Shown one piece after another: positions 1,713 to 20,570 of a DNA stretch of 64,000 nt. The notes under the pieces are model-generated. The model worked only from the letters and a program-made list of their open reading frames with translations. It had not been told where the DNA came from and did not search any database. The translations under genes were made by a program, and so were the position numbers. Source of the DNA: Calditrichia bacterium (GTDB lineage Bacteria; Calditrichota; Calditrichia; JAJRVZ01); NCBI GenBank assembly GCA_963777955.1, contig CAVZSQ010000017.1:96001-160000 (forward strand), given 5' to 3'. Every line of letters starts with the position of its first letter. Within the stretch, counting starts at the first letter, position 1.

Positions 1713-2921
1713 ATGATGCGGAAATTCTGTCTGCCAGAATTCTCTGGGCCACGGGGCAGTAATTCCTCGTGGCAATTTCGTGTTTGCACATTAACCTTTA
1801 TTATTTTTACTATCATGACTAAATCTGCTCCGGCTAAACAAGATTCACTGCTGGTTTGTTTTCAGGTCGCAGCCAGTAATTTGCCTGATACGGCCAAAAT
1901 ATATATTGCAGGCAACCATCCGCAGTTGGGGAACTGGCAACCGGATCAGGTTGCTCTGCAGAGGCAGACCGGTACAAATATCTGGTCAGCCGGCTTTAGA
2001 TTCCCCTCCGGCCAGATTCTGGAATACAAGTTCACCAGGGGGGATTGGTCTGCAGAAGCTGCCAATGCGGATGGAACGGTTCCTGCGAACAGCATATTAA
2101 AAGTCGAAGAAGATACGACACTGGTTACTGAAATCAAATACTGGAAAGATGCCTTTCAGTATGAGATCCACAGACAAATTACCGGTACATTCCGTTATCA
2201 TCGCCGGGTTGAGGGCAATGACCTTAAGCCCAGGGATATAATTGTCTGGCTCCCTCCGGATTACGAAAAAAATACAAAACTCCATTATCCGGTTCTGTAT
2301 ATGCACGATGGGCAGAACCTGTTTGATCCGCATACCTCTGCCTTCGGGATAGACTGGCAGGTTGATGAAACCGCCGATAGCCTGATCCGGGATAAAAAAA
2401 TCAGTCCGTTGATTATTGTCGGCATTTACAACACTTCCCAGCGTAATGATGAATATGCACCCAATGATACCGGTCGGACTTACATGAAGTTCGTGGTGGA
2501 ACAGGTAAGGCCGTTAATCGATAGCACTTATCGCACTTTGACTGATCGGCAGAATACGGCTACCGGGGGTTCATCCCTGGGTGGATTGATTTCTTTCATG
2601 TTATTGTGGGAATACCCGCAGATATTTTCCAAAGCCGCCTGCTTTTCACCTGCCCTCAAAATCGGGGCACTGGATTATGTATCCCGGGTCCGCCAGGATG
2701 GCAAACAAAAACTGCCGGTCATGATATATCTGGATAACGGCGGTGTCGGACTGGAAGAAAAACTGCAACCGGGAATCGATGAAATGCTGCTAACCCTGAA
2801 AGATATCGGGTACAAAATGGATCGGGACTATTATTGGTACAAGGATAGTACGGCCACCCATAATGAATCAGCCTGGGCAAAACGGGTCTGGCGTCCATTG
2901 GTCTTATTCTGGGGCCGATAA
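1713..2921 (+). CDS. CBM20 starch-binding domain + alpha/beta-hydrolase (putative esterase)
   Basis: 'IYIAGNHPQLGNW...LEYKFTRGDW' (CBM20), 'YPVLYMHDGQNLF', 'GGSSLGG' nucleophile elbow, 'HNESAW'. Start uncertain. Confidence 0.85.
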   Translation: MMRKFCLPEFSGPRGSNSSWQFRVCTLTFIIFTIMTKSAPAKQDSLLVCFQVAASNLPDTAKIYIAGNHPQLGNWQPDQVALQRQTGTNIWSAGFRFPSGQILEYKFTRGDWSAEAANADGTVPANSILKVEEDTTLVTEIKYWKDAFQYEIHRQITGTFRYHRRVEGNDLKPRDIIVWLPPDYEKNTKLHYPVLYMHDGQNLFDPHTSAFGIDWQVDETADSLIRDKKISPLIIVGIYNTSQRNDEYAPNDTGRTYMKFVVEQVRPLIDSTYRTLTDRQNTATGGSSLGGLISFMLLWEYPQIFSKAACFSPALKIGALDYVSRVRQDGKQKLPVMIYLDNGGVGLEEKLQPGIDEMLLTLKDIGYKMDRDYYWYKDSTATHNESAWAKRVWRPLVLFWGR

Positions 2922-2964
2922 TTATACTCACTGCACCCGGGCAGAATTCTAAAGAGGGTAAACA

Positions 2965-3681
2965 GTGTCGGATTCAATCAAATCCATCGCTAAATTAATT
3001 GATCATTCTTTACTCCACCCCAAACTTGGTGATGAGGAACTGCAGGCCGGTTGTCTGCTGGCCCGCCAGTATGATGTCGCTTCAGTTTGTATCAAACCCT
3101 ACGCTGTACCTTTGGCCAGGGAAATTCTGGCAAAATCACAGGTCCGCGTGGGTACGGTTATCGGGTTTCCGCATGGCAGTAATCACCTGGAGATCAAAGT
3201 TAAAGAAACCGAAAGAGCCCTGGCCGACGGCGCTGAAGAGTTGGACATGGTGATCAACATCGGTAAAGTACTAAGCGCCGACTGGGCTTATATAGCCGAG
3301 GAAATCAGGACAATTAATAATATCCTGATTAATAACAACGGAATTCTTAAAGTCATCTTTGAAAATGATTTTTTAACTGATAAAAACTATAAACTGAAAC
3401 TTTGTGAAATATGCAATCAGCAGGCAGTGGCTTTTGTCAAAACCTCTACCGGATACGGCTTTGTTAAACAAAAGGATGGAAATTATAATTATAGCGGTGC
3501 GACCGATGCGGATTTGGTTTTAATGCGCAATAATTGTAGTAAATCAGTCCAGATTAAAGCGGCCGGTGGAATACGCACCCTGGATGATTTATTGCGTGTT
3601 AGAGCGCTGGGGGTAACCAGAGTGGGCACCACTTCCACTAAAAACATATTGCAGGAAGCTAAAGACCGGGGTTATATTTAG
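2965..3681 (+). CDS. deoC: Deoxyribose-phosphate aldolase
   Basis: 'IDHSLLHP', 'GTVIGFPHG', 'FVKTSTG', 'IKAAGGIRT'. Confidence 0.95.
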   Translation: MSDSIKSIAKLIDHSLLHPKLGDEELQAGCLLARQYDVASVCIKPYAVPLAREILAKSQVRVGTVIGFPHGSNHLEIKVKETERALADGAEELDMVINIGKVLSADWAYIAEEIRTINNILINNNGILKVIFENDFLTDKNYKLKLCEICNQQAVAFVKTSTGYGFVKQKDGNYNYSGATDADLVLMRNNCSKSVQIKAAGGIRTLDDLLRVRALGVTRVGTTSTKNILQEAKDRGYI

Positions 3682-3890: not shown

Positions 3891-6800
3891 ATGAATATTA
3901 AGGGGCAATACCAAAAGAGTTTTATACTTGTTGTTGTCGTACTGATTTACTTTTTGCACCTCTCGACACTTTATGCCCAGAAAGCCAGTGCAGAATTTAT
4001 CTCTACTATTATTCCCTCAAACTTAAATACGGGCCAGCAAGTCAAAGACGGCGTGCAAAATCTTACCTACAAGGACAATATTCTGTATGTAGTTAATGTT
4101 TGGGCTGGTATCCAGGTAATCGATGTGAGCAATGTTTATAAACCGAAAGAGATTGGACGTTATCAGAATGAACATCGCGCCCATAATTTATTCATCGATG
4201 ATAATTATGGCTACCTCTCCGATGAACTGGAAGGGGTCAGTATTCTGGACCTTTCCAATCCCACAGCCATCTCCCGCGTAGGCAAAATTCCCACTGAAGG
4301 TAATGCCTGGTGGGTCGAAGCGAACTTTCCTTATGTTTATATCGCCGAAGAAGAACGGGGAGTTACCGTATACAATATAACGGATGTGACCAATCCGATG
4401 CTCATCGGCAATTATGACACCCCCGGTTGGACCTGGGGATTGAATGTGCAGGGTGATTATGTATATGTAGCCGATAAAACCGGTGGACTATTGATCCTCG
4501 ACTTTACCGTAAAAGAATCCCCCGTCTTAGTCGGTCAATTCAAAGAACCCAGGCAGGCCAAAACGATCCAGATCGAAGATAATTATCTTTACCTTACCGA
4601 CGGACCCAATGGATTATTTATTCTTGATATCACCAATCCAAAATTCCCTGCTCTGGTCAGCCGGGTTAAAAGCGAAGGTTTTATTTTCAACGTTTTTAAA
4701 AGCGGAAAATACGCTTATCTGGCCAATGAATCTTTACGCCGTCTGGATATAGTCAGTTTAACCGATATAAAGAAGCCGGTTCTCGAAGCGAGTTATCAGG
4801 CGGACGATAAAATTTACAGCGTCTGGAAAAAGGATGTGTACGTTTTTGTCGCGGCTAATAGCAAGACGCTTATCCTGCGGCATAATAATCCTCCCGTACT
4901 GGCGGAAATTCCGGCCCAGACTGTTGATGAACAACAAGTACTTACAATTAAACCCGAAGGATATGATCCTGACGGCGATCCCATCTTCTATCGTGTAAAA
5001 AGTTTGCCTGACGGCGCCAGGTTCGATAGCACCAGCGGTGCTTTTAGCTGGACCCCGACGTATGATCAATCCGGACTCTATAAGAATGTAACGATCAGCA
5101 TCATTGAAAAAACAGATAGTAAACTGGCCACCAGTCAGACTTTTGATATTACGGTACAACATGTAAATCGCGCACCGGCACTTCCGGAAGTGGAAAATTA
5201 TACGGTTAGTGAAAATCAATCCCTCAGTTTTGAAATTAAAGAAGGGAGTGATCCGGATAAAGAGGATAAAGGTAAACTTGCCTACACCACCGAGAATTTG
5301 CCCGAGGGCGCAGTTTTTGATTCCCTGAAAAGAAAATTTACCTGGACGCCCAATTTTGACCAGTCCGGAACATATGCCCTCGATTTCATCGTCAAAGATC
5401 CCCCCGGTGCAACTGCCCGCGATGCCTCTACCATTACCGTGCTCCATGTGGATCGTAAACCGGTAATTGCGGCGATTGAAAATAAAACAGTTGACGAAAA
5501 TCAGAGTATGGAATTTACTGTCGAAGGCAGCGATCCGGATAAGGAGGATCAGAATATTATCGCTTACTCGGCCCGGAATCTGCCTAAAGGCGCTGTGTTT
5601 ACCGCTGCCAGACAACAGTTTGCCTGGACCCCATCCTATGACCAGGCCGGTGAATATCCAGACCTGTTATTTATCATTACCGCCGGTAAACAATCTGATT
5701 CGACCATGATGAATATTACCGTCAATAATATGAGCCGGCCACCTGTTCTGGAATCTATTGCAGCAAAAACCATCGATGAACAAAAACTCCTGTCTTTCAT
5801 GGTCAGTGCTACCGATCCTGATGCCGAAGATCAGCAGCGCCTGAAATTCACCGCACAGAATTTACCCCCGGGGGCAAAATTCAGCGCCGACTCGCTGCGT
5901 TTTAACTGGACCCCATCCTACGACCAGGCCGGCAGTTATGCGGAGATTTCCATAACGGTGACCGATCCTTTCGGTTTGAGTGACTCAAAATCTTTTACTA
6001 TTAATGTAAATAACATCAACCGGCCGCCGGTGCTGGCAGAAATACCGGCACAGATTGTGGACGAGGATAAACCATTGACCTTTACGGTGACCGGCAGCGA
6101 TCCCGATAAAGAGGATCAGGATAAATTAAAATACAGCGCAAAACAATTGCCGGCCGGAGCAACCCTGACAGATAACGTTTTTAACTGGACACCCGGTTAT
6201 GATCAATCAGGAGATTATGCGCCGCAAATTTCAATATCGGATGGTATCCTGTCAGATACAAAAACCGCGCAAATTACAGTAAAACACGTTAACCGTCCTC
6301 CTACCCTTGAACCGGTCATTGCCAAAACGGTCGATGAGAATAAAATTTTAGAATTTAAAATTACCGCCGGCGATCCGGATAAAGAAGATACCGGCCTGTG
6401 GAAATTAACCGTTGCCCAGTTACCTGAGGGCGCGGTTTTTGATCCGGCCACGGCTGATTTCAGCTGGACACCTAATTTTGACCAGTCAGGCCTGTATACA
6501 CTGAAGTTCACCAATACCGATCCGGCTGGATTGATTGCCGCCGAGGATGTTCAGGTAACCGTCAATCATGTAAACCGTACCCCTGTTTTCAATATCCTGA
6601 CCGCCCAGCCATTGGAAGAAAATACGCCTTTCAGTATGAACATCCCTGCCGGCGAGGATCCGGATAAAGAAGATGCGCAAAAATTGATTTATGCTGCACA
6701 AAATTTGCCGGAAGGTGCGACTTTTGACGCTGTGTCCCGCACCCTGTCCTGGACACCTTCCTATGCTCAGGCCGGTCAATACAATCTGAACATTTCATGC

Positions 6801-8031
6801 AGTGACGGCCCCTTCAGCGTAAAGCAACCTCTGAATCTGACAGTGAACAACATAAATCGTCCACCGGAAATCCAGTCGATCGCCGATCAAACAGTTGACG
6901 AAAATCAGGAACTTAATCTGCAGGTTATTTTCAGCGATCCCGACGAAGAAGATCAGGGCAAAATCCAATTAACAGCACTTAATATACCTGCCGGTGTGGA
7001 ATTTAATGATATAAACGGTGAACTGAGGCTGGAAACCTACATATGTACAGGCCGGAGTATATAATAATATTGAAATGACGGCAACCGATCCCGGTGGATT
7101 AATGATCAAGAAAAGTTTTAACATCACCGTTAATAATGTGAACAGACCGCCGTTGGTCAAACCGCTGGTCAAAACCACCATTGCCGAGAATACTCCTGTC
7201 AGCGTTACTGCCGAGGCGACAGATCCGGATCAGGAAGATGCCGGTAAATTACAATTTTCAGGCGATAATCTTCCCGCTGGAGCCACTCTGGAGCCCTCCG
7301 GCGGCACCTTCTCCTGGACCCCTGATTTTACCCAGGCCGGTGAATATACCGTCAATTTAAAAGTGACTGATAGCGGTAATCTGAGTGCTGAAACACCCCT
7401 GGCACTTTCGATCACCAATGTGAATCGTAATCCGGTTATCCAGCCTGTAGAAACCAAAGATATAAATGAAAATGAAACGGTAAAATTGAGTATAGCCGCC
7501 ACTGACGAAGATAAGGATGACCGCTTAAAATTCTCACTTGAAGAAGCACCACGTGGTGCTTCGATCAATGAGACCAGCGGCGAGTTGTCCTGGACTCCCG
7601 ATTATACCCAAGCGGGTGAATATGCATTTAAGGTTAAAGTCAACGATGGTACAATCGATGATGTCGCTATTGTAACCATAAATGTAAATAACGTAAATCG
7701 CAAACCTGATATTCAGGGTGTCAGTCCGGTGACAGCCACCGTCGGCGAATCTATTGAACTTAGTTTTAATGGTTCCGATCCTGACAATGATAAATTGACC
7801 TACCAGGTCTCGGGTTTACCGGCTGGCGCCAATTTTGACGTCAACAGCGGAAAATTCAGTTGGCAGCCGGGCGCTGACCAGGCCGGCTCATATAAATTTA
7901 CCGTAACCGTTTCCGACGGCACCGATTCGGCTGAGACGACAGCCGGCATCACGGTCAATCCGGCGGCAGTACCACCACCTGAACCCGTTCCGCCTGAATC
8001 AGCGCCACCGGAACAACCATCAACTCCGTAG
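3891..8031 (+). CDS. Large surface protein: LVIVD-repeat propeller + 11 tandem ~95-aa Ig/cadherin-like (He_PIG-type) repeats + Pro-rich tail; frameshift near 7030
   Basis: Signal peptide, repeated 'YAYVAD...GL.ILD', then repeats 'NRPP...DPDKED...LPEGA.FD...FSWTP.YDQ.G'. ORFs 3891-7064 and 7075-8031 join in the middle of a repeat. Confidence 0.85.
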
Positions 8032-8775: not shown

Positions 8776-9169
8776 CTAAAATCATCATCACCCTCCTGAC
8801 AAAAATAAGCAGCAGCATGTGCCGGCGCAGCTGACCGATTATTTTTCATTGGACATTGATTATTTCATAATTATATTAATAGTGTTAGATATTTATTACT
8901 TCTGATAGAATTCTGGATTCAGGCAATAATTATACCGGTTTCGTTAACGTTTTAAAGATAGCGGTGGGACGTATTATGACACGGCCGTATTCCAGGTTCG
9001 ATAAAATGTTAAAATTTTAAAAATACATCGAGTGAGGCGTGTTATTACACGGCTGTGCTTCTGCCTTTCGCCATGATATAAGGATAGTAAATACAAAAGG
9101 TTTCGGGAAAATAGTTGTATATTTTTTTTATTATTTATTTTATATTTTAGATGACGAAAAGACGGACTA

Positions 9170-9193
9170 GTCTAACTTAATTATATGTTAGGC
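9170..9193 (+). other. Putative attI site
   Basis: GTCTAAC-TTAATTATAT-GTTAGGC directly before the first cassette, with no attC hairpin. Confidence 0.6.
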
Positions 9194-9211
9194 AAACCTT
9201 GGGGAGGATAT

Positions 9212-9901
9212 ATGAAAATCTTTATCTTACTCCTCTTAATATTTATCTCAATCACGCTTTTTTCTTGCATAGATCTATCTGGACCTGAAGATCCATCACA
9301 TGCTCCCGGGAACATCTACGGTTATGTATATGATAAAATTTCAGATGAACCTGTTCCAGGTACACGTATTATTGTTCTACAAGGTGACGATTTCACCTTG
9401 ACAGATTCTTCAGGATATTTTGAAATTGATAGTATCAGCCAGGGTTATTACAGCATATTTGCCATCAAAGAGGACTATTATGTAGACTCTTTAAATATTC
9501 AAATTAAAACAAATGAAGAAATTCCGACAAATTTTTCAATCTCGTTTAAAGGATTGTATGCGATTACTGATTCATCAAGATATCACATTGAAAATCAACA
9601 AAATATTATAAAGGTAAGAATTATAAATAATGCGGAGTATACGCATTATCTATGGTGGTGGTGTGATATTATGTTTGAATCATATAAATATAAGGGAACT
9701 GCTTGGGAAATATTTTCAGCGCGTGCTTGTTTACTTAATGTGGCGCCCCAGCTTATTGAAATTGCAGCGAAGGATTCAACGATCGCACAGATGCCGATTA
9801 GCGAAGGAGGCAAGTTCTATATTAAAATTCCATACAGAATATCTGAAGACGATATAGACAGATTAGTATATACAAATATTTTTGAGGTAATAAAAAAATA
9901 A
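9212..9901 (+). CDS. Cassette lipoprotein with carboxypeptidase-regulatory-like domain
   Basis: GGAGG RBS, lipobox 'LFSC', 'GNIYGYVYD...TDSSGYFEI'. Confidence 0.8.
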   Translation: MKIFILLLLIFISITLFSCIDLSGPEDPSHAPGNIYGYVYDKISDEPVPGTRIIVLQGDDFTLTDSSGYFEIDSISQGYYSIFAIKEDYYVDSLNIQIKTNEEIPTNFSISFKGLYAITDSSRYHIENQQNIIKVRIINNAEYTHYLWWWCDIMFESYKYKGTAWEIFSARACLLNVAPQLIEIAAKDSTIAQMPISEGGKFYIKIPYRISEDDIDRLVYTNIFEVIKK

Positions 9902-9907
9902 GGGTTT

Positions 9908-10023
9908 GCCTAACACCGCAGTCCAGCGGACCCGCCTGAGGCGGGCCGGTTATACCTGGTCGATAAGCCGACCGCTTGTGGTCGGCTTATCGGCGCGGCG
10001 GCTTTTCCGTCGCGCCGTTAGAA
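9908..10023 (+). repeat. Composite attC (GCCTAAC...GATAAGC + mini-unit ...GTTAGAA)
   Basis: R'' 9908-9914, CCCGCC/GGCGGG core, candidate R' sites at 9962 and 10017. Confidence 0.75.
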
Positions 10024-10035
10024 TTTGGAGGTTTT

Positions 10036-10445
10036 ATGAGATCTGTTATTTTCTTAGAATTGTGTGTATTGCTTTGTTTATTATTTGGTTGTAATCCAAG
10101 TTATGTTAGTATGACACCAGAGCAAAGAAAAGAGCAATCCATTAAAGACTATGAGACAACTCAAAAAATGATAAATGAAGGGAAAATTACTTTTGAAGGT
10201 GGGGATGGTTCTTCAGAAGAAAATGCAATCATAATAAAGGGTACAACTAAGTCAAAATATGGTATAAAAGTCGAGTACATATATATTATGATGAAGCATA
10301 GTAATGGAGATAATGATTGGGAAATTATATCACAAGCTCTGGAGGAAATGATAGAAAAAAATATGATATATTCACTATAAAGAATAAAAAAACAGACGAA
10401 GAAAAAATATATTGTTTTGACATTACTAAATATTTTGGCAGATAG
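10036..10445 (+). CDS. Cassette lipoprotein, hypothetical (frameshift near 10350)
   Basis: Lipobox 'LFGC', 'GGDGSSEENAIII'; other frame ends 'YCFDITKYFGR*'. Confidence 0.7.
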
Positions 10446-10470
10446 AATAAATATATTATTGATCATTAAT

Positions 10471-10603
10471 TTCGCGAATTCATGTTTGAGTCCGGCAATA
10501 GCCGGACGAGTTTGAATTCGTCGAAGGTCTTTTTGCCTACTTTTTGGCCAGTCAAAAAGTCAGCCGCCGGAGGCGGAATAAGTTTATAAGAAATCAAATT
10601 TGG
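10471..10603 (+). repeat. Three-hairpin non-coding element, copy 1 (3' of a cassette ORF)
   Basis: TTCGCGAATTCA..GTCCGGC-AATA-GCCGGAC..TGAATTCGTCGAA; ACTTTTTGGC/GTCAAAAAGT; CCGCC-GGA-GGCGG. Confidence 0.9.
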
Positions 10604-10702
10604 CTCTAACACCACGCTCAAGTAGAGGACAACGAACCGGTTGAACGTGAATTGTAAAATGTGTGGAAATCGGTTTACGCCGGCTACCGTTGGTCGTTAG
10701 GT
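10604..10702 (+). repeat. attC
   Basis: CTCTAAC...GTTAGGT, long central region shared with other sites. Confidence 0.75.
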
Positions 10703-10723
10703 AGAAAAATTGAGGTGAAAAAT

Positions 10724-11264
10724 ATGTTTATCAAAAAGAATTTCTATTTTTGGATATTAATCATGTTTCTATTATTAAACTCAAATAATTTTGCTCAGGA
10801 TACACTTAATTATAGGCATTATAATTTTGGATTCGGAGTTACCTTACTAAAAGATTATACGTTTTATTTCCCGATATTTATTACAAATAATATCAAAATG
10901 GAACCGGAACTCTACTATCGTCGTGATTCAGATCCTTATCATGATCAGGAAAGTACAGAGTTAGAAATTGGTACAGGATTATTTTATTCGCGGCACTATT
11001 CTCAATTAAATATTTATTCGGGTTTGAGAGCGGTCTATAGTTTTTATAATAGCTGGGACAAGTATGAGGGAATCGAACTTGGTCCGACTTTAGGGGGTGA
11101 GTATTTTTTAGTCTGCTCGTTTCAGTCTTGGCACTGAAATGCAACTTAAATATTATCATCATAGGTACTCTTCCAGAAATGACCGCCAAGTTCCCCTTAA
11201 AGGTGTTACGAGAAGTGGTATCTGGACATATGCTTATTTCATTATGAGAATTTATTTGTTTTAA
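10724..11264 (+). CDS. Cassette small outer-membrane beta-barrel protein (frameshift near 11110)
   Basis: Signal peptide, alternating beta strands, 'GGEYF..RFSLGTEMQL', C-terminal Phe. Confidence 0.7.
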
Positions 11265-11290
11265 TTTTACAATTAAATATTTAGGTACTT

Positions 11291-11352
11291 GTCTATCAAG
11301 CGCTTTAAATCGAACCCGCCTTTGGCGGGCCGGTTATACCTGGTCGATAGAA
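11291..11352 (+). repeat. attC with non-canonical ATC/GAT core
   Basis: GTCTATC...CCCGCC-TTT-GGCGGG...GATAGAA. Confidence 0.75.
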
Positions 11353-11541
11353 GTGGAGAATATTTGAGAAGAATTAATTATAGATAGAATTGGTTTTGAA
11401 GTTCGCGAATTCATGTTTGAGTCCGGCAGTAGCCGGGCGAGTTTGAATTCGCGAAGGGTTTTTTTGCCTACTTTTTGACCAGACAAAAAGTAGGTCGCCG
11501 AAGGCGAAATAGTTATATAATTAATTAATTTTGGCTCTAAC
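11346..11541 (+). repeat. ORF-less cassette carrying hairpin element copy 2
   Basis: Between two attC sites, no credible + strand ORF, AT-rich leader nearly identical to those at 12994 and 17303. Confidence 0.85.
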
Positions 11542-11628
11542 AAACATTTGTTGTGGACGCCGAACCGACCAGCTTGAAATATAGAATATGCTAAGCCATC
11601 AGGCGCCTGTGACTTTTTGTCATTAAAC
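11535..11628 (+). repeat. attC (degenerate R', ATTAAAC)
   Basis: CTCTAAC-AAACATTTG...GTGACTTTTTGTC-ATTAAAC. Confidence 0.6.
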
Positions 11629-11640
11629 TTAGGACAATTT

Positions 11641-12085
11641 ATGAGAATATTTTATCTTTTAATTGTGCTTATTTCATTTTTTTCGAAAATCTTTGCTCAA
11701 ACTGAATCTGATTCTATTACTGTAACTGCGCTCGCCAGATCAGAAATTTCAATAATACAACTATTAGCTGATCTGGGGAAAATATCATAATTATGAGATC
11801 ATTGTTTCCGGATTTATGCACTTAAATTTTGAAGATCATGCTATTTATTTTTCCAAAAATCATGCAGATTTTTTGATTGGATCTGATGCTTTTTGGATTG
11901 ATTTTTCTGATACAGTAAAAGTTTTCGATATGGATATTAGTAATTCTAAAGTTGTTGGATTGAAAGATTTGAAAAATTTGAATAATAAATATGTAACTCT
12001 AAAAGGAATTTTTAATAAAAATAATAATGGACATCTAGCTTCATACTCAGGTGCTATAGAAAATATTACTGAAATACATGAGTGA
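11641..12085 (+). CDS. Cassette secreted hypothetical protein (frameshift near 11780)
   Basis: Signal peptide 'MRIFYLL...IFAQ', 'SIIQLLAD', continuing in another frame 'KYHNYEIIVSGFMHLNFE...YVTLKGIF...GHLASYSGAI'. Confidence 0.65.
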
Positions 12086-12177
12086 TTTAAAGACGGTATG
12101 ATGGATCTAAAGAATTAATTGGTATTGATAAAGCAACCGGTAAACTCGTACCTCTTGATTCAACAACAAATAAATAA

Positions 12178-12273
12178 GTCTAACCTGGGTATAAAGTTAA
12201 ACCTTCACGCGCCGGCTTTTCGCTAAGTTAAGTTATGTCAAGCGTTCGATCAACTTATACTTTGCAGATAAGC
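12178..12273 (+). repeat. attC (R' = GATAAGC)
   Basis: GTCTAAC..GTATAAAGTT...AACTTATAC..GATAAGC. Confidence 0.65.
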
Positions 12274-12304
12274 CCATTAATTAAAAATAAATTATTATAA
12301 AAAA

Positions 12305-12921
12305 ATGATTATTGAGACAAATACGATCAAATTAACTGAATTTAGTTAAAATGATGTCAAAGATATTATAAATCAATTAAATAATTCAAACTGTGAAATT
12401 ATAATTTTAGGTAAATCAAAATACGAATTTATTCAAGGTGCAAATAATGAGAATAAAGAATTTCAAATAGAAATTAGTGAACAAAAAAATAATGTGATAG
12501 AGTTCGTCGAACAATTAGATACATTTTATAATTAATGAAGTCAAAACACTTTTTATTCAATATTATAGAAATGATTCGACTTGGACTGAGAAATTTAAAA
12601 TGGAAGATTATATTAATAAGAAATGGTTACTTTTTAAGTGATAGTGCTAGAAAGGTATGCTTAATATTTGGTGCAATTTTACTCGTGGTGTACTTCGCTA
12701 TTCGTATAAATATTCCTGATAGTTCGTTAAGAAATATTTTGGGATTAAAGTGGTACTATTATCTGACCATATGTTGAAGTTTAATTTCTCTTGGGACTGG
12801 TCATGAGTTAAAAAACTTGAAAAATAATGAGGGAAATAACCAGGTTTATACAGTTGGAACGTGGATTGCGACAGCAATTTTACTTATAGTAAGTTTTTTG
12901 TCATTAGTTGGCATCATTTAA
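12305..12921 (+). pseudogene. Degraded cassette gene (membrane protein)
   Basis: Several in-frame stops and shifts; fragment 12535-12777 and a hydrophobic tail ending just before the next attC. Confidence 0.5.
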
Positions 12922-13000
12922 ATCTATCACCGGCCTCAACCAGATTCTGGCTTTGCCTGCCTGGCGACAGGTCGGGGCCGGTTATGCCTGGTCGTTAAAG
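12922..13000 (+). repeat. attC (R'' = ATCTATC)
   Basis: ATCTATC-ACCGGCCTCAACC...CCGGTTATGCCTGGTC-GTTAAAG. Confidence 0.75.
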
Positions 13001-13167
13001 GTGGAAAATATTTGAGAAGAATTAATTAAAAATAGAATTGGTTTTGAAGTTCGGTAGCCGGACGAGTTTGAATTGGTCGCAGATCCTTTTGCTGACTTTT
13101 TGGCCAGTCAAAAAGTAAGCCGCCGGAGGCGGGAATAAGTTTATAAGAAATCAAATTTGGCTCTAAC
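12994..13167 (+). repeat. ORF-less cassette carrying hairpin element copy 3 (5' arm of hairpin 1 deleted)
   Basis: Same leader as 11346 and same tail as 10581; lacks most of CGAATTCATGTTTGAGTCCGGC. Confidence 0.85.
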
Positions 13168-13278
13168 AAACATTTGTAGTGGACGGCGAACCGACAAGCA
13201 AGAATTGTAAATTTTGTGGTAAGTGGCTTACCACCACTAAAATATACCATCGCAAGGTAACTTTATTTTTCATTAGGA
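13161..13278 (+). repeat. attC (right end uncertain)
   Basis: CTCTAAC-AAACATTTGTAGTGG...CCACTAAAAT; probable R' ATTAGGA at 13272. Confidence 0.6.
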
Positions 13279-13282
13279 ATCT

Positions 13283-13822
13283 ATGGAGACAGATCTTAAG
13301 AAGATAAAGCATTTCGGCGAAAGACGTAGGAGAGAAAATTTTGCTTTTCGAGCATTTTTGAAAAACCTTGATATCAGTACAAAGAAATTAGATACACTTG
13401 TTTGTACTATTTTTCATGAAGTTTCATCTCAAATTGATTGTAAGAAATGTGCCAATTGCTGTAAACAGATGAAAATTATTTTAACAAATCAAGATATAAG
13501 AAGATTAGCAGATGGGCTAGATCTTCAATTAAAATCATTTAAAAACCAATACACAAGTTTAAGTGAAGATAAATCTGAGATCTATTTTAGTAAAATACCA
13601 TGTCCACTTTTAAAAGATAATCTTTGCTCAAAATATAAGTTCAGACCTACAGATTGTCGTTCATTTCCTCATCTGGAAAAACGAATATTTGTGTCAAGAC
13701 TCTGGGATGTTGTAGATAATTATTCGATCTGCCCGATTGTTTTTAATGTATATGAAATTCTCAAGAATAATTTATGTCCATATAAGGAATATGATATTTA
13801 TAACGAATATGAAATGTATTAA
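13283..13822 (+). CDS. YkgJ-family cysteine-cluster (CxxCxxCC) protein
   Basis: 'CKKCANCC', 'CPLLKDNLCSKYKFRPTDCRSFP'. Confidence 0.9.
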   Translation: METDLKKIKHFGERRRRENFAFRAFLKNLDISTKKLDTLVCTIFHEVSSQIDCKKCANCCKQMKIILTNQDIRRLADGLDLQLKSFKNQYTSLSEDKSEIYFSKIPCPLLKDNLCSKYKFRPTDCRSFPHLEKRIFVSRLWDVVDNYSICPIVFNVYEILKNNLCPYKEYDIYNEYEMY

Positions 13823-13827
13823 AATCT

Positions 13828-13914
13828 ACCTAACAAGTGCTTCAAATCGGACGCCGAACCAATAAGCATGAATTGCTAAATTGGTGTGACGGCTCTTCCG
13901 CCGCGCCGTTAGAC
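13828..13914 (+). repeat. attC
   Basis: ACCTAAC...CCGCGCC-GTTAGAC. Confidence 0.75.
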
Positions 13915-13943
13915 GCGCTTTCATATTAAAAATCAATTTATAT

Positions 13944-13972
13944 TTGAAATAGCAAAAGAAAACCCATAAAAT
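13944..13972 (+). promoter_or_regulatory. Sigma70-like promoter of the TA cassette
   Basis: TTGAAA-17 bp-TAAAAT, ATG 5 nt downstream. Confidence 0.6.
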
Positions 13973-13977
13973 TATAT

Positions 13978-14229
13978 ATGCCTACGATTCTTTTTATAGA
14001 TGGGTGGCGTTTTTTCTTCTACTCAAATGAGAAGAGGGAACCCATACATGTTCATGTGCAGAAGGGAGAGAAAGAGTGCAAATATTGGTTGGATCGTATT
14101 AATTTTGAAGTTACCGAAGCGTATTCATTTCAAATGAATAATAGAGACAAACGTATAGTAAAAAAGATTATATTTGAATACTTTGAAGTGATTGAAAAAG
14201 AATGGGACAAGTTTCAAGAGAGTAAATAA
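13978..14229 (+). CDS. DUF4160 protein (putative TA component)
   Basis: 'MPTILFIDGWRFFFYSNE.REPIHVHV..GEKECKYWL'. Confidence 0.88.
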   Translation: MPTILFIDGWRFFFYSNEKREPIHVHVQKGEKECKYWLDRINFEVTEAYSFQMNNRDKRIVKKIIFEYFEVIEKEWDKFQESK

Positions 14230-14230
14230 A

Positions 14231-14494
14231 ATGAAAATATATCATCGTATAAAGAATATTCGATTTCAAGAGGATAGACTTGTAATCAATATTGATAATA
14301 AAAATTATTCGTTTGAATTAATAAAAATATCCAAAAAGTTGCTGAATGCCACAAAAAAAGATAGAAATCAATATATTATTTCTCCATCAGGTTATGGAAT
14401 TAATTGGCCGACGTTAGAAGAAGATCTATCAATAGATGGATTGTTAGGAATAATTCATAAACCAACAGCAGTAAAGAAACAGCTATCATTTTAA
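14231..14494 (+). CDS. DUF2442 protein (putative TA partner)
   Basis: 'ISPSGYGINWPTLEEDLSIDGLLG'; adjacent to DUF4160. Confidence 0.88.
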   Translation: MKIYHRIKNIRFQEDRLVINIDNKNYSFELIKISKKLLNATKKDRNQYIISPSGYGINWPTLEEDLSIDGLLGIIHKPTAVKKQLSF

Positions 14495-14499
14495 GGTAC

Positions 14500-14562
14500 G
14501 TCTAACACCGGCCTCAACCGAATCCCGACAAAGTCGGGACCGATTATGCCGCGCCGTTAGAA
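14500..14562 (+). repeat. attC (short, canonical)
   Basis: GTCTAAC..TCCCGAC-AAA-GTCGGGA..GTTAGAA. Confidence 0.85.
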
Positions 14563-14566
14563 GGAA

Positions 14567-14980
14567 ATGAGAATGGGAACACTACTTCATAAATGCATGG
14601 TTAAGGCGACAATTAAAGAAGGTGAGAAGATTCGTAGTTCATTGAATTGGGCTTTTTCACGAAGAGAAATGCTTTATGTGATGTCTGATTCATTAAGATG
14701 CGGTGATTGGGAAATACCGTATTCGGAAATCGAGGATTCAAAAATTTATTCTGTACCATGGCTTTTTACTAATGCCTATGTACTTGTAGTGAAAATCAAG
14801 GGACAAATATATCAATTTGGATTAAATCCAGGACGATTTTGGAAAGGAGATCTTCCTTTTCCAGTGAAACGAGAAACTCTAGATAATCGATATTGGAATA
14901 TTGTTAATCTTATCAGAATTATTATATTTGGTCTCTTAGCTTATTGGATCATAAATGAAATAATTAAAAAATACTTCTAA
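14567..14980 (+). CDS. Cassette hypothetical protein with C-terminal TM helix
   Basis: ORF fills the cassette; stop codon overlaps R'' TTCTAAC. Confidence 0.75.
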   Translation: MRMGTLLHKCMVKATIKEGEKIRSSLNWAFSRREMLYVMSDSLRCGDWEIPYSEIEDSKIYSVPWLFTNAYVLVVKIKGQIYQFGLNPGRFWKGDLPFPVKRETLDNRYWNIVNLIRIIIFGLLAYWIINEIIKKYF

Positions 14981-15069
14981 CAATGGCATCAACCGGACGC
15001 CCAGCCGACTAGCGTGAATTGCTAAAATATGTTAAGTGGCTGGTCGCCGGTTATGCCTGGTCGGCGGAC
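14975..15069 (+). repeat. attC whose right end is joined to non-canonical sequence (G|GCGGAC)
   Basis: TTCTAAC..GGCATCAACCGG...CCGGTTATGCCTGGTC-G. Confidence 0.75.
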
Positions 15070-15089
15070 AGAGGGATCAGAGCAAGCGC

Positions 15090-15503
15090 ATGTGGTTGAC
15101 CGACGGGATACGTAGCCTCGTTGCCCGATACAGGTTCAATCGGACCTATGGGCGGCACCTGGGTGTCCTGTCGGTCACGGACGAGAAGCTGGCGCTCGGC
15201 CGCTACCGCTTGCATGGCACGACGACCGTTCTCGAGAACGACTGGCGCGTACCCTGGCAGAAGATCAGAAAGATCCAAGCGTACAAGCGGGACTGCTATA
15301 TCGTGGACCTCATCTGTCTCGCCCTCGAAACCGAAGATGGCCGGCAGTTCGAGGTCAACGAGGAGATGGATGGCTGGCGGGAGATGCAGGGCGCACTGGC
15401 GGCACGGTTCGGAATCCAAGAGGACGCGTGGTTCGTAGAGGTCGCTGTTCCCGCGTTCGCGACGAATCTGAAGACACTCTGGGCACGTGAAGGAGAAGCG
15501 TAG
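15090..15503 (+). CDS. High-GC hypothetical protein in the cassette array
   Basis: GC-ending codons; 'VPWQKIRKIQAYKRD...EVNEEMDGW...VAVPAFATN'. Confidence 0.75.
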   Translation: MWLTDGIRSLVARYRFNRTYGRHLGVLSVTDEKLALGRYRLHGTTTVLENDWRVPWQKIRKIQAYKRDCYIVDLICLALETEDGRQFEVNEEMDGWREMQGALAARFGIQEDAWFVEVAVPAFATNLKTLWAREGEA

Positions 15504-15547
15504 GTGGCATTCACCGGAGGCGGAATAAGTCAAAACTAATAAATTAA

Positions 15548-15608
15548 CTCTAACACTTCAGTCCACAGGACCTGCTTTAAGCAGGCCGGTGACTTTCGGT
15601 CATTAGTA
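15548..15608 (+). repeat. attC (degenerate R', ATTAGTA)
   Basis: CTCTAAC..AGTCCAC..CCTGC/GCAGG..GTGACT. Confidence 0.75.
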
Positions 15609-15625
15609 TACATTTTAGGAGAGAT

Positions 15626-16174
15626 ATGACAAAATCCTTCATTTCTATTTTAGTTATACTTCTATTTTATTCATGTTCAAAACCGATAGCGAATCTACAA
15701 CCCACTCAAAATGGAAGCTATTTCATAAAAGATTTCGGTTTTGAAATTACTTTACCTGAAAGTTGGATTCACAGCGAGGTAACAAGAAACGGCTCTGTTA
15801 CAGATTATAATTTTGTAAGAAAAGGAATTAAAGACAATACTGGATTATTAGTTTCACCATTTATTGGTATTATGTGTGAAAAGGTTACGAAGGATTTAAA
15901 TGTTCTTTTTTATTCAATGGCAAAAAGAGCACAATTTGTACCTTGGAATTTAGAAACTGTACTTACTGCTGAGAGTAAGGATTTCCCACTTGTGTATGGA
16001 ATTGGGTATATCGGTACATATAATGATGCAAACAATTTAGAACATAAAATTATTATTCTACATATGATAAATGACACAAATGGAATTCAAATAATAATTG
16101 ATGGGACTACTTCAATTTATGAAATCATGAAAAATGAATATTTAAGTATTATTTCATCAATTGTTTTAAAATAG
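15626..16174 (+). CDS. Cassette lipoprotein, hypothetical
   Basis: AGGAG RBS, lipobox 'FYSC', 'FGFEITLPESW'. Confidence 0.75.
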   Translation: MTKSFISILVILLFYSCSKPIANLQPTQNGSYFIKDFGFEITLPESWIHSEVTRNGSVTDYNFVRKGIKDNTGLLVSPFIGIMCEKVTKDLNVLFYSMAKRAQFVPWNLETVLTAESKDFPLVYGIGYIGTYNDANNLEHKIIILHMINDTNGIQIIIDGTTSIYEIMKNEYLSIISSIVLK

Positions 16175-16180
16175 TATGAA

Positions 16181-16241
16181 TGCTAACACTGGCCCCAACC
16201 GGACCTGCCTGAAGCAGGCCGGTTATGCCTGGTCGATAGAA
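16181..16241 (+). repeat. attC (R' = GATAGAA)
   Basis: TGCTAAC..CAACCGG-ACCTGC/GCAGG-CCGGTTATGCC..GATAGAA. Confidence 0.8.
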
Positions 16242-16250
16242 TGAAATAAG

Positions 16251-17096
16251 TTGAATTTATTGCCTATGCAAGACTATCAATATAGTAAAATGGCTAGAAA
16301 GAAATTTGCATATACTGTAATATATCTCCTAATATTATTTCATATTCTTGTGCTTATAATTATCCCAGTACTATTCGCTACTAATAAAGAGTTTGGATCA
16401 CAGGTACAAGGCGTTGTACATGGGTATATTGTATTTTATAATGCTATGATTGAGTGGGAGAATATGTACTTGGTTTTAGTTATGTGTAGCGCAATAGTTA
16501 TTGCAATAGTCGTTGAACTAATATTATTAATAATTCAGTATAATATTCACCAAATAAAATTAAAGAAAATAATAATTATAGTTTCCACTTGCTTTACAAT
16601 AGTTACAATTGATTTTATATTAGAGCACCCAACATTATTAGGATATGATATATTATTTCCGAAGTCAATTATTACTAAGTATGAATATGCATCGAATGAG
16701 TATAATAATTCTCTTGCTCCTGAAGACAAATATGAAATATACAACTTACTTATCAAATTCCCTTCTGATGTTTTTATATATGATAGTCTTCATAATAATG
16801 CTGGATTTAGGGGTTTATGGAGGCAGTACAGTATACCAATTGATCCCGATGTCCAAAGTATATTTAGAGAATATTGGGCGAAAACCAATGGTAAAGGTAA
16901 ATTTATTTCGAAATATTCATTAGAAGATCATGGTTGTCGTTTTGTATTTTCTCCAATAAAAAAAATTGGAAATAAAATAATTATAGGATGTGCGTATACA
17001 TGTGCTCCGCTTATAGGAAAAGGTTGGTATAGTGAAATAGAGAAAGTCAATAATAAATGGATTATTATAAAAGAACATCTTCTATGGGTATCTTAA
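16251..17096 (+). CDS. Cassette membrane protein (3 N-terminal TM segments + soluble domain)
   Basis: Hydrophobic segments; C-terminal 'CAPLIGKGW...KVNNKWII..LLWVS'. Start uncertain. Confidence 0.7.
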   Translation: MNLLPMQDYQYSKMARKKFAYTVIYLLILFHILVLIIIPVLFATNKEFGSQVQGVVHGYIVFYNAMIEWENMYLVLVMCSAIVIAIVVELILLIIQYNIHQIKLKKIIIIVSTCFTIVTIDFILEHPTLLGYDILFPKSIITKYEYASNEYNNSLAPEDKYEIYNLLIKFPSDVFIYDSLHNNAGFRGLWRQYSIPIDPDVQSIFREYWAKTNGKGKFISKYSLEDHGCRFVFSPIKKIGNKIIIGCAYTCAPLIGKGWYSEIEKVNNKWIIIKEHLLWVS

Positions 17097-17214
17097 ACGT
17101 TATACAACTAAAATCGTTATATGAAATAAAAGTAATATATAAAAACAAATTGCCGGATTAATATCAATTAATTCTGATGACTAACAAAATTATGCTGATA
17201 TAATTGATTTTATT

Positions 17215-17309
17215 TACTAACACCGGCCTCAACCGGACGCCCAGCCGACTAGAGTGAAATGCTAAGTTGGGTTAAGTGGCTGGTCGCCGGTTATCCCTGG
17301 TCGATAGAA
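17215..17309 (+). repeat. attC (R' = GATAGAA)
   Basis: TACTAAC..., near-identical to the 14975 site. Confidence 0.8.
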
Positions 17310-17560
17310 GTGGAAAATATTTGAGGAGAATTAATTAAAAATAGAATTGGTTTTGAAGTTCGCGAATTCATGTTTGAGTCCGGCAGTAGCCGGACGAGTT
17401 TGAATTCGTCGCAAATTTTTTTGCCTGTTCCTCGCTAGAGTTTATCCCGTTGAAAAACGGGACGGGGACAAGTTTTGGCCAGACAATAAAAATGCCCCCG
17501 CGAAAGCGGGGGTAGGCCGCCGGAGGCGAAATAATTCTAAATTACACGAATTTGACTCTA
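17303..17560 (+). repeat. Empty-cassette backbone with hairpin element copy 4, carrying two inserted mini-hairpins
   Basis: Aligns with 11346-11541 except inserts at about 17427-17472 and 17487-17512; ends at CTCTA with no attC. Confidence 0.85.
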
Positions 17561-17573
17561 CGGATCAACGGGT

Positions 17574-17962
17574 ATGACTAAACAGCAAGCGATTTCCGTC
17601 GCAACATTGAAGGCAATTGTTGATGCGTTCAACGCCCACGACCTGGACGCCATCATGGAGTTCTTTGCCGACGATTGCTCGTTAGACATGCCTCGGGGAC
17701 CGGATCCCTGGGGTAAACCTTCACGGGCAAAGCAGCCGTGCGAGAAGGCTTAGCGATACGCTTCAAGGATCTCCCGGACGTTCACTACAGTGACGACCGG
17801 CACTGGGTCAGCGGCAACATGGGCATGTCCGAATGGCTACTAACCGGCACAACGCCCGACGGAGTCCGAATTGAGGTACGTGGATGCGACCATTGGGAAT
17901 TCCGAGAAGGGAAGGTAATTAAGAAAGACTCGTACTGGAAGATCGTTGATAAATCCCTGTGA
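17574..17962 (+). CDS. SnoaL-like/NTF2 family protein (frameshift near 17718)
   Basis: 'IVDAFNAHDLDAIMEFFADDC...PRGPDPWG' joined to 'VREGLA.RF...EVRGCD.WEFREGKVIKKDSYWK'. Confidence 0.85.
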
Positions 17963-17971
17963 GTGTCAGCG

Positions 17972-18749
17972 CTCTAACATGATATGTAAGTGTGAACCCG
18001 AAGCATAGTAGATTTATAAATTATTGGCTTATTTCTTTATTATGATGATCAGATTGATGAGCCTTAAAGAATCATCCAAAATTTTGGAAAAATTTATGGA
18101 GAAGGTAAGTTTGTTTTTTATCTTCGCTAAAGGCTTCAAAGGGTGAATGCCGACTTCTAGGCGATTATTTTCCACGGCGACAGTTTAACCCTAATGATTC
18201 TGTAACAGTCGGTTTTGAGATGTGGTATGAGTTTTATCACGGCTAACCGTAATAGTATTTCGACCATAAAGGAAAAGCAGGATGTCGACGAGCGTATCTC
18301 ACATTCATTACTTTTCAACCAGATCGAATGAAGTAATTTTCATTACAGGTTCGTTTCAATCATGGATTTTAGGGGATGGAATAAATTAACATTATATGTG
18401 GCCTATAAGATTATCGATTTAAAGATGCTGCAAGATAGAATACTTTATGAATTCAGTTCAAGGATTAATGAAGAATTGTCACCCATTACCATTGGTCGTG
18501 GTGTGATATCATGTATATTTTATACAAGTATAATGGACATTTTGGGAAATTTACCATGGTTCCTCCGTGCATCCAAATTTATGCGCCACAATATTATTGC
18601 AATAATTGCAAAAGATACTACGCTCCCACAGATGTCATTTCAGCGAAACTAGAAGGTATTATTATTTATTTGGATATAGAATATCTGAAAATGATCAAGA
18701 TAGAATATTATTTTCAAATATTTTTGATGTTGTTAAAGAATAAAGGTTC
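17972..18749 (+). pseudogene. Truncated attC (CTCTAAC) followed by decayed cassette sequence
   Basis: Only short fragmentary ORFs; no recognisable R'. Confidence 0.4.
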
Positions 18750-18811
18750 GCCGATCACCTTAGTCCACTGGATCCCGACCTGTCGGGGCTAGTGACTTTC
18801 GGTCGTTGGGC
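18750..18811 (+). repeat. attC (degenerate R'', GCCGATC)
   Basis: AGTCCACTGG-ATCCCGAC/GTCGGG..AGTGACT..GTTGGGC. Confidence 0.75.
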
Positions 18812-18831
18812 ACTAGTAAATAGAGATATAT

Positions 18832-19200
18832 ATGAAATCCTACACACCGATAAACTTAAAAGAAAAACTATTAAAAATAGGGGAATTGTGGTCCCCGAAA
18901 GTAATTGCAGAGATAAATGATTACCAAATAAAATTAGTAAATATAATGGGTGAATTTGTCTGGCATGACCATAAAGAAACCGATGAAGTGTTTATTGTCC
19001 TTTCTGGTGAGATGATTATTGAATTTAGGGATGGTATAGCCCACCTTAATACAGGTGAGTTATTTGTTGTTAAAAAAGGAATCGAACATCGTCCTCGAGC
19101 AAAAGATATCTGTAAAATCATGGTAATAGAGCCTCGGGATGTAGTAAATACTGGTGATGCTGGGGGTACATTAACTGCACAAAATAATATATGGATCTAG
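18832..19200 (+). CDS. Cupin domain protein
   Basis: 'GEFVWHDHKETDEVFIVLSG...GELFVVKKGIEHRP'. Confidence 0.92.
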   Translation: MKSYTPINLKEKLLKIGELWSPKVIAEINDYQIKLVNIMGEFVWHDHKETDEVFIVLSGEMIIEFRDGIAHLNTGELFVVKKGIEHRPRAKDICKIMVIEPRDVVNTGDAGGTLTAQNNIWI

Positions 19201-19232
19201 CGCCAGAACGTTAAAATTAAAATTAATTGGAT

Positions 19233-19388
19233 TGTCCCGTCAGGGACAAAATATTTGTGGAAAAACAATGTCACCCTAATTTATGTATAGTGCCGTCAGG
19301 CCTGGCGGGAAATATGTCGTCCCTGGCGGGACTACAACAAATTATGGGAGATTTTTCGATCTAGAAATATTTCATCCCTGACGGGATG
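19233..19388. repeat. REP/REPIN-like cluster of four short palindromes
   Basis: GTCCCGTCAGGGAC, GTGCCGTCAGGC, GTCCCTGGCGGGAC, ATCCCTGACGGGAT in inverted pairs. Confidence 0.7.
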
Positions 19389-19443
19389 TTGATTGATAAT
19401 CATTAATATTTAATTACGTTAAAAAAGGGAATCTTTGCATTGC

Positions 19444-19505
19444 GTCTAACACCGCAGTCCACTGGGTCCGCCAGCTGGCGGGCCAGTGACTTTCGGTAGT
19501 TAGAC
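19444..19505 (+). repeat. attC (canonical)
   Basis: GTCTAAC..AGTC[C]ACTGG..CCGCC/GGCGG..CCAGTGACT..GTTAGAC. Confidence 0.9.
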
Positions 19506-19699
19506 TTGGAACTTATTTATAGAAGGATAAAATTTCTCGGGGTTTTTTGAATTTGGCGAATTTATGTTTGAGTCCGGCGTAAGCCGGACGAGTTTAAATT
19601 CGCCTTGATTTTTTGCTTACTTTTTGATCAAGCAAAAAGTAAGCCGCCGGAGGCATTAAAACGAATTTAGATATATAAATATGAAAGCCAAATCCTAAC
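19499..19699 (+). repeat. ORF-less cassette carrying divergent hairpin element copy 5
   Basis: Different flanks; core 19555-19654 with compensatory substitutions. Confidence 0.85.
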
Positions 19700-19787
19700 A
19701 CCGGCCTAAACCGGACGCCGAACCGACTAGCATGAAATGTAAATTTTGTGGTAAGTGGTTCGCCGCCACTAAAATGTACCGTTAAAA
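19693..19787 (+). repeat. attC (chimeric arms)
   Basis: TCCTAAC...GTTAAAA. Confidence 0.75.
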
Positions 19788-19813
19788 GACTATTAAAGAT
19801 GGGAAAAAATTAC

Positions 19814-19848
19814 TTGCAATTACGTACATAATCACGTACGTTATATAT
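19814..19848 (+). promoter_or_regulatory. yefM-yoeB promoter/operator
   Basis: TTGCAA -35; two GTAC-centred hexamers (19823, 19835) 12 bp apart, as in yefM-yoeB-type operators. Confidence 0.6.
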
Positions 19849-19862
19849 AAATTGAGGTGCTA

Positions 19863-20105
19863 ATGAAAACTATAAGTGTAACAAATGCAAGATCTAAACT
19901 ATATAAATTATTGGACGAAACAAATACTTCCGGCGAACCAATTCAGATTACCGGAAAACGATCAAACGGGATATTGATTTCAGAGGCTGATTGGCGAGCC
20001 ATTAGCGAGACCTTATTTCTCTTATCTATACCTGGTATGCGTGAATCTATTCGGAAAGGATTGAAGGAACCTATTGAAAAATGTGCGCCGGAGATTAAAT
20101 GGTAA
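19863..20105 (+). CDS. yefM: Phd/YefM antitoxin
   Basis: 'ISVTNARSKLYKLLDE...PIQITGKR..ILISE.DW.AI.ETLFLLSIPGM'. Confidence 0.93.
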   Translation: MKTISVTNARSKLYKLLDETNTSGEPIQITGKRSNGILISEADWRAISETLFLLSIPGMRESIRKGLKEPIEKCAPEIKW

Positions 20106-20365
20106 AATGGAAGCTGGTTTATACGAAACAGGCTCAAAAAGATGCAAAAAAAATATCAGCGGTAAATCTTGAGGAAAAAGCTATTGAGGTTCTAAAAATC
20201 CTTGCCGAGAATCCATTTAAGTCCTCTCCAGCGTATGAAAAACTTGTTGGTGACTTGACGGGAGCATATTCCAGAAGAATCAATATTCAACATAGAGTTG
20301 TTTATCAAATATACGAGAAAGAACATATTGTAAAAATTATTCGGATGTGGACGCATTACGAATAA
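20099..20365 (+). CDS. yoeB: Txe/YoeB toxin
   Basis: 'EKLVGDLTGAYSRRINIQHRVVY...MWTHYE'. Confidence 0.95.
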   Translation: MVKWKLVYTKQAQKDAKKISAVNLEEKAIEVLKILAENPFKSSPAYEKLVGDLTGAYSRRINIQHRVVYQIYEKEHIVKIIRMWTHYE

Positions 20366-20379
20366 TAAAATATATTATT

Positions 20380-20570
20380 TTCTAACACCGGCCTCAAGCG
20401 GACCCCGACAGCACTGAAAAAATCGAGAAACTGTTTCCGCTCGTGCTAGTGGTGCAGTTCGCCGTCCCCAGAATTGCTGCCCAACAACAACATGCAGTGG
20501 ATGATGTTTCGCGCAAAAGAGGAAAGGATATATATTTCCCTGATGGCTATAATGATAGACCACGTTAGAG
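20380..20570 (+). repeat. Truncated attC plus terminal degenerate attC
   Basis: TTCTAAC-ACCGGCCTCAAGCGGA half site; GCCCAAC (20479)...GTTAGAG (20564). Confidence 0.55.

Follow-up and report, generated by a model that had tools for sequence, protein, structure and literature searches.

The array and its host assembly

The window, by which we mean the whole 64,000-nucleotide stretch analysed here (positions 96001-160000 of contig C17 in the host assembly, G000), carries a cassette array that spans approximately 9190 to 20450 (Table 1). The array opens at an AT-rich site that we read as a putative attI, and similar AT-rich sites also begin arrays on C20 and C21 of G000. A complete integron would have intI next to attI and the array, and no integrase lies beside this start. 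The sole intI of G000 is found on C20 and is read in three frames; in all four relatives the gene is intact. Using profiles made from the sites in the window, a search of the entire genome gave 48 attC-like and 22 element matches in G000. When four long housekeeping genes of the assembly were checked, two, rpoB and one dnaE, proved to be split by frameshifts, and rpoC and a second dnaE were intact. The G000 assembly carries indel errors, and single-base oddities at the locus therefore weigh little.

Table 1. Features of the cassette array in the window.
Feature	Position	Strand	Basis or remark
attI-like array start	9165..9193	+	read from sequence; upstream gene is DUF502
Second gene and element cassette: low-GC gene (10037-~10447), 22-bp spacer, intact element, tail, attC	10017..10696	+	
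Empty element cassette (leader, three-hairpin element, tail)	11346..11541	+	profile matches, fold
Empty element cassette, first hairpin shortened	12994..13167	+	profile matches
Host-type long attC of the upstream cassette	14975..15063	+	R' core lost after crossover G
5' junction: foreign cassette start, four bases shorter than the donor start	15063..15071	+	comparison with L001
High-GC gene (137 aa), weakly PH-like predicted fold, large unnamed family	15090..15503	+	GC3 0.77
3' junction, 8-bp microhomology CCGGAGGC	15514..15521	+	common to donor 3' UTR and last hairpin of the element
Tail and R'' of element cassette, C23 / G001:C229 subtype	15522..15554	+	28/33 and 27/33 identity
Host-type short attC gained by the gene	15547..15609	+	folds at z -2.89; crossover ATT at 15602
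Opposite-polarity fusion: element cassette without attC joined to SnoaL-like gene of 54% GC	17303..17978	+	
Empty element cassette	19499..19699	+	profile matches

Several further units were observed. Mini units starting with GAT lie at 9963-10017 of the window and at C27:98253, C27:99200 and C20:47820 of G000; in each, an almost perfect hairpin leads into the 3' half of a different attC type, and further hairpins are nested in some of them. One of them stands first at attI beside intI on C20, and a related nested form occurs in genome G001 (L027 190-303). Two-gene cassettes occupy 13978-14494 and 19857-20365 (DUF4160/DUF2442; YefM/YoeB-like toxin-antitoxin pair). The paralogous cassettes at 9185-9901 and 18362-18792 are 71% alike over 134 bases, and the latter looks decayed. 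A second family of palindromic repeats, with GTCAGGGAC-type arms, is placed between genes and attC sites (window 19220-19400; G000 C18:6300-6420 and C21:182500-182600). At 3891-8031 the window encodes a long protein built of about ten repeats of 93 aa; it is split at 7064/7075, and an assembly indel may be the cause.

The high-GC gene and its product

The preliminary description of this DNA drew attention to a GC-rich segment with a single open reading frame, and this is confirmed by its composition (60% GC at 15064-15513, against 28-32% in both neighbouring genes). The protein family of the 137-aa product comprises 1286 cluster representatives (E of 0.001 or below). Pfam holds no family for the protein, and at most 2 of 125 family members match any one Pfam family; PADLOC likewise has none, and in the Atlas only unnamed clusters match. 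The structure is predicted with a pLDDT of 95. In a structure comparison most of the top rows were PH-fold chains, the best with a Z of 6.2 (below 8) and an rmsd of 3.5 over 74 residues, and none of the Foldseek matches to the model reached E 0.001. The model aligns mainly, and weakly, to chains of PH-like domain proteins (bacterial PH proteins such as 3dcx; Rtt106 and SSRP1). A binding or adaptor role for the protein is a guess, and no observation links it to the fusion described below.

A cassette-borne homologue

Scanning metagenomes for the gene gave two loci, L001 and L002, which are identical over all 3480 bases compared and are counted here as one sequence. At L001 the gene's counterpart forms a whole high-GC cassette (2670-3197) that includes an attC of its own, and the gene stands in a row of genes with four related attC-like sites between them. 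The assignment of these sites as attC is based on their anatomy (spacing and end boxes), since the attC model trained on the host matches two of the four weakly (E 0.09 and 0.16) and their consensus fold holds no compensatory pair among 11. A trace of IntI at L001 is below significance (E 0.62). An attC of the L001 type is also present, intact, on C20 of G000.

Window and L001 are identical at 402 of 458 bases, ungapped, from 15064 to 15521, with no identity beyond. The identity begins at the first bases of the L001 cassette, and both ends of the segment map to cassette ends; the window retains the L001-like 5' UTR from the R' box onwards and the 3' UTR up to the shared word CCGGAGGC. The donor is known from this one sequence at 88% identity, which is not the true parent. 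Another relative of the gene, P0002, is 93% identical. Searches of the species genomes, the other genomes of the phylum (0 of 85), plasmids (by DNA and by protein) and viral contigs (with P0004) returned no donor, and no un-fused ancestor was seen in which the gene is followed by the foreign attC and then by the empty cassette. It is unlikely that L001 descends from the fusion in the window, since it bears its own foreign attC.

These results bear directly on the origin of the unit. In the preliminary description the locus was read as a possible snapshot of cassette genesis, a search of 15063-15513 for donor context was proposed, and a simple deletion fusing two pre-existing cassettes was named as the outcome that would speak against genesis. 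A homologue with context does exist, but it is already cassette-borne, and a deletion of that kind is what L001 shows. Genesis de novo calls for a non-cassette origin, and the nearest homologue with context is in a cassette; a fused cassette calls for an upstream partner that was complete with its own attC, which L001 supplies from a single sequence. The proposal of cassette genesis is therefore not borne out.

The 5' junction

The upstream attC was described as ending in G and running on as GCGGACA rather than TT, which the sequence bears out. When folded (z -4.45), its bottom strand leaves the ends of the R boxes unpaired. A second G/GCGGA junction lies at C18:6510 of G000. We considered the non-GTT junction as a special mark and rejected this, because it is the majority state: attC sites with this 3' end in G000 (n = 18, leaving out one match on C26 that is not an attC) continue as GTT in 5 cases, GAT in 6 and otherwise in 7, so that 13 of 18 are non-GTT. 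All three G001 sites of this attC type continue as GTT, and on the public contigs X1, X2 and X4 the same type runs on as TT at the position equivalent to 15063.

At L001 the cassette start, GTTGGGCGG, is complementary to its own R'' (CCGCCGAAC) at 8 of 9 positions, and the window has the same start minus four bases, which leaves a match of 3/9. Scored over the 7-base core, the fused cassette matches its own R'' at 3 positions, the lowest value among the 13 window cassettes scored (4-7 in the other 12). Of the features of a canonical cassette, the unit thus has the folded attC at its end and lacks the GTTRRRY start complementary to its own R''.

Small losses, of a few bases, immediately behind the crossover G recur, at window 15063, at C18:6510 and C21:182938 of G000 and at L001 3197. 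A loss of four bases is supported in the window by L001 and on C21 by the element leader; the cases at C18:6510 and L001 3197 are without a known parent. Since L001 comes from a different assembly, these losses are not all errors of G000.

The 3' junction and the acquired attC

About ten bases past the stop codon the sequence had been reported to switch to the tail of the hairpin element. The interval is indeed ten bases, with the switch at 15514, and a tail profile made without this copy recovers the tail there at E 2.5e-4. To the left of CCGGAGGC, 30 bases match the donor at 24 positions and five elements at 7-10; to the right, 33 bases match the donor at 7 positions and the tails of the C23 and G001:C229 elements at 28 and 27. 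Over four cassette types, a random join would overlap by at least 8 bases at 0 to 0.11% of position pairs. Taken with the cassette-borne homologue, these comparisons fix both breakpoints, the microhomology and the ancestry of the tail. The donor 3' end has two words, of 8 and 9 bases, in common with the last-hairpin region of the element, and the second lies at the donor R'', which makes a two-step path possible. The piece lost amounts to 77 donor bases and, for a neighbour of the C23 subtype, a further 113 (approximately 190 in all). Action of IntI at this junction was considered and rejected, as no GTT/AAC core is present there.

On the public contigs X1, X3 and X4 the element body precedes the tail. 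Record 15 of run X2, aligned with window 15506-15556, has non-element-like sequence before the tail in the 30 letters shown and is possibly another tail-only join.

What follows the tail was called a normal attC. A host-type attC is present, but its crossover departs from the normal form (Table 1). The site scores 69.6 bits with a model whose own training set includes it. With its own attC gone, the unit ends in that of the downstream cassette, as a fused cassette does. A stands in place of G at this crossover, as it does at 11618 of the window and at C3:3485 and C21:185005 of G000; cytosine deamination on the bottom strand could account for these cases, as could error.

Gene-less element cassettes and other fusions

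The element is a three-hairpin repeat (fold z -7.9) that is palindromic, extragenic and dispersed in multiple copies, in the manner of REP and MITE-like sequences. Of its 22 copies in G000, 13 are not beside a detected attC; the nine array copies comprise seven that are empty with their own attC, one that is empty with the attC lost and one behind a gene. Element matches occur in 17 of 86 genomes of the phylum, and Rfam returned one chance match only. A scan for the tail pattern matched only G000 and G001 among the 86 genomes, the matches L056 and L057 in species genomes being left out of the counts, and gave none in viral contigs. Two inverted copies follow the intI stop directly at C20:46326-46572 of G000, and another adjoins an intI fragment on C22. 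No element was found beside intI in four loci of relatives, one of these being cut at that point.

A second gene, placed at 10036-10445 by the preliminary description and said to replace the leader of an empty cassette, does lie upstream of an intact element at the spacing given in Table 1, but the join falls in the AT-rich leader and not at a hairpin. Its frame breaks near 10380, and the homologue P0154 backs an end near 10445. Over 114 bases, the element tail of this cassette shares 93% identity with the empty cassette at 12994. The gene has matches in 0 of 85 other phylum genomes and is without donor context. G001:C229 is likewise a gene with an intact element and attC, joined in the AT-rich leader and without donor context, and an attC deletion also explains both cases.

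In the opposite-polarity fusion the tail meets the SnoaL-like gene at the R'' box; within 17560-17978 this gene is read in two frames and is followed by a decayed attC. Five plasmid matches at approximately 68%, which come without flank information, give it no donor context. In the two genomes surveyed (G000 and G001), general erosion by deletion fits the pattern of fusions better than a directed route does.

Probable origin of the unit as a fused cassette

We consider it very probable that the unit is a fused cassette, in which a foreign cassette lost its attC by a short deletion and now ends in the attC of a gene-less neighbour. IntI would first have integrated a pre-existing high-GC cassette of foreign origin at an attC of the host, as the position of the junction at the first bases of the cassette suggests. 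Four crossover bases would then have been lost, most simply by slippage between short TCG repeats, an account that presumes a parent start complementary to its R''; an assembly error is possible at this step. In the second step, a deletion between two copies of CCGGAGGC would have taken the foreign attC together with the leader and body of the gene-less cassette (about 190 bases for a C23-subtype neighbour), probably promoted by the hairpins on both sides. We infer this order of events. Fusion through slippage at attC hairpins is described in reviews (PMC8876359), and PMC4670013 also describes attC loss by slippage as a way to fused cassettes; a 41-bp attC deletion arose during an evolution experiment (PMC8024014).

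By extension from data on IntI1, the fused unit is probably not mobile on its own, since its 5' core is gone. For IntI1, an unpaired core lowers recombination from 2.2e-3 to 6e-6 and a mismatch at the first base brings a 1,000- to 10,000-fold drop, while the enzyme tolerates a T-to-A change at the second base when it is paired (PMC2811028); a truncated attC is reported not to be excised alone (PMC4670013). Any movement of the gene would probably take the upstream cassette (14556-15063) along with it, and both cores flanking the fused unit are non-GTT.

A broader reading is that empty element cassettes are recurrent attC donors, with hairpins as preferred break sites and incoming genes regularly refitted. 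Empty cassettes would then be a chassis for cassettes that already exist. Of the earlier suggestion, a chassis supplying attC to newly captured genes, one part holds, the gene now using the attC of an empty element cassette, and the other does not, the gene not being newly captured. Units of gene, element and attC do recur (window 10017 and G001:C229), eight empty copies are available in the G000 arrays, and at 15514 both the break within the last hairpin and the two words shared with the donor 3' end would suit such a route. Only one of nine tails that lead into an attC start, that at 15514, is without the element body, however, and the other two gene-bearing cases are joined in the AT-rich leader and lack donor context. 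At 17303 the polarity of the fusion is reversed, the foreign-type attC persists intact on C20, and the product is probably immobile alone. We regard recurrent donation as unlikely.

Still less likely is an assembly chimera or error, by which a foreign read would have been joined into the contig. Such faults have some precedent here, in the frameshifts of rpoB and one dnaE, in an intI that is read in three frames in G000 and intact in its relatives, and in a contamination of 5%. Spanning reads are absent: none of 24 runs holds more than 0.10 of the words of the stretch, and the contigs of 4 of these runs bridge neither 15063 nor 15514, gaps that carry no weight either way. One X2 contig covers 287 bases of the gene with 3 differences and ends inside it. 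A chimera would, however, require a false join at each end of a 450-base stretch, the first exactly where the cassette starts and the second at an 8-base word that would be too short for assembly overlaps, and the 5' junction recurs at C18:6510. An error in the four-base loss alone would leave the main reading unchanged.

De novo capture of a non-cassette gene into an empty-cassette backbone, to which the sharp GC step, the non-GTT start and the element tail past the stop had pointed, is most improbable, as the homologue is a complete cassette whose 5' UTR, and 3' UTR to the shared word, are kept in the window, and as the upstream side is the neighbour's attC and not the leader of an empty cassette.

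Significance and comparison with known systems

In the window, a natural exchange of one attC for another can be followed at base resolution, for a gene that was not newly captured. Uniform attC sites have been taken as a sign of cassettes forming in their host (PMC5371416), and attC type serves to infer cassette origin (PMC8352920); a single swap shows that the link between attC type and origin can break. Its importance would be wide only if swaps are common and their products mobile. It is doubtful, but conceivable, that gene-less hairpin cassettes form a standing supply of host attC, with microhomology deletions at hairpins refitting foreign cassettes. If this were true, it would help to explain why sedentary arrays combine uniform attC sites with mixed genes, gene-less cassettes would gain a role, and attC type could misreport the origin of a cassette.

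Our literature search, of partial coverage, found no report of attC replacement via a gene-less cassette. How cassettes form de novo is described as an open question (PMC5371416, PMC8352920). The gene in the window resembles such a case in having acquired a host-type attC, but it was already cassette-borne; how an ordinary gene turns into a cassette is not seen here, and the locus is silent on how a non-cassette gene first gains an attC. The paralogous non-coding cassettes of Vibrio and ORF-less cassettes (PMC1382264, PMC8876359) are, like the element cassettes, multi-copy and gene-less with a normal attC. Compared with these cassettes, the cargo here is a three-hairpin repeat that is also found at 13 places without an adjacent detected attC.

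Further parallels are the cassettes fused by attC loss, blaGES-1/aacA4 and blaOXA-10/aadA1 (PMC4670013, PMC8876359), in which, as in the window, the upstream attC is deleted and that of the downstream cassette is kept. Fused cassettes are thus a known kind, and the net effect at the window is an attC swap. In contrast to the known examples, the array is environmental, the 5' core is damaged too, and the break falls within a hairpin repeat, at a microhomology of 8 bp. The downstream partner also differs in being gene-less and almost wholly deleted, and for this reason the unit has the appearance of a one-gene cassette whose attC is new.
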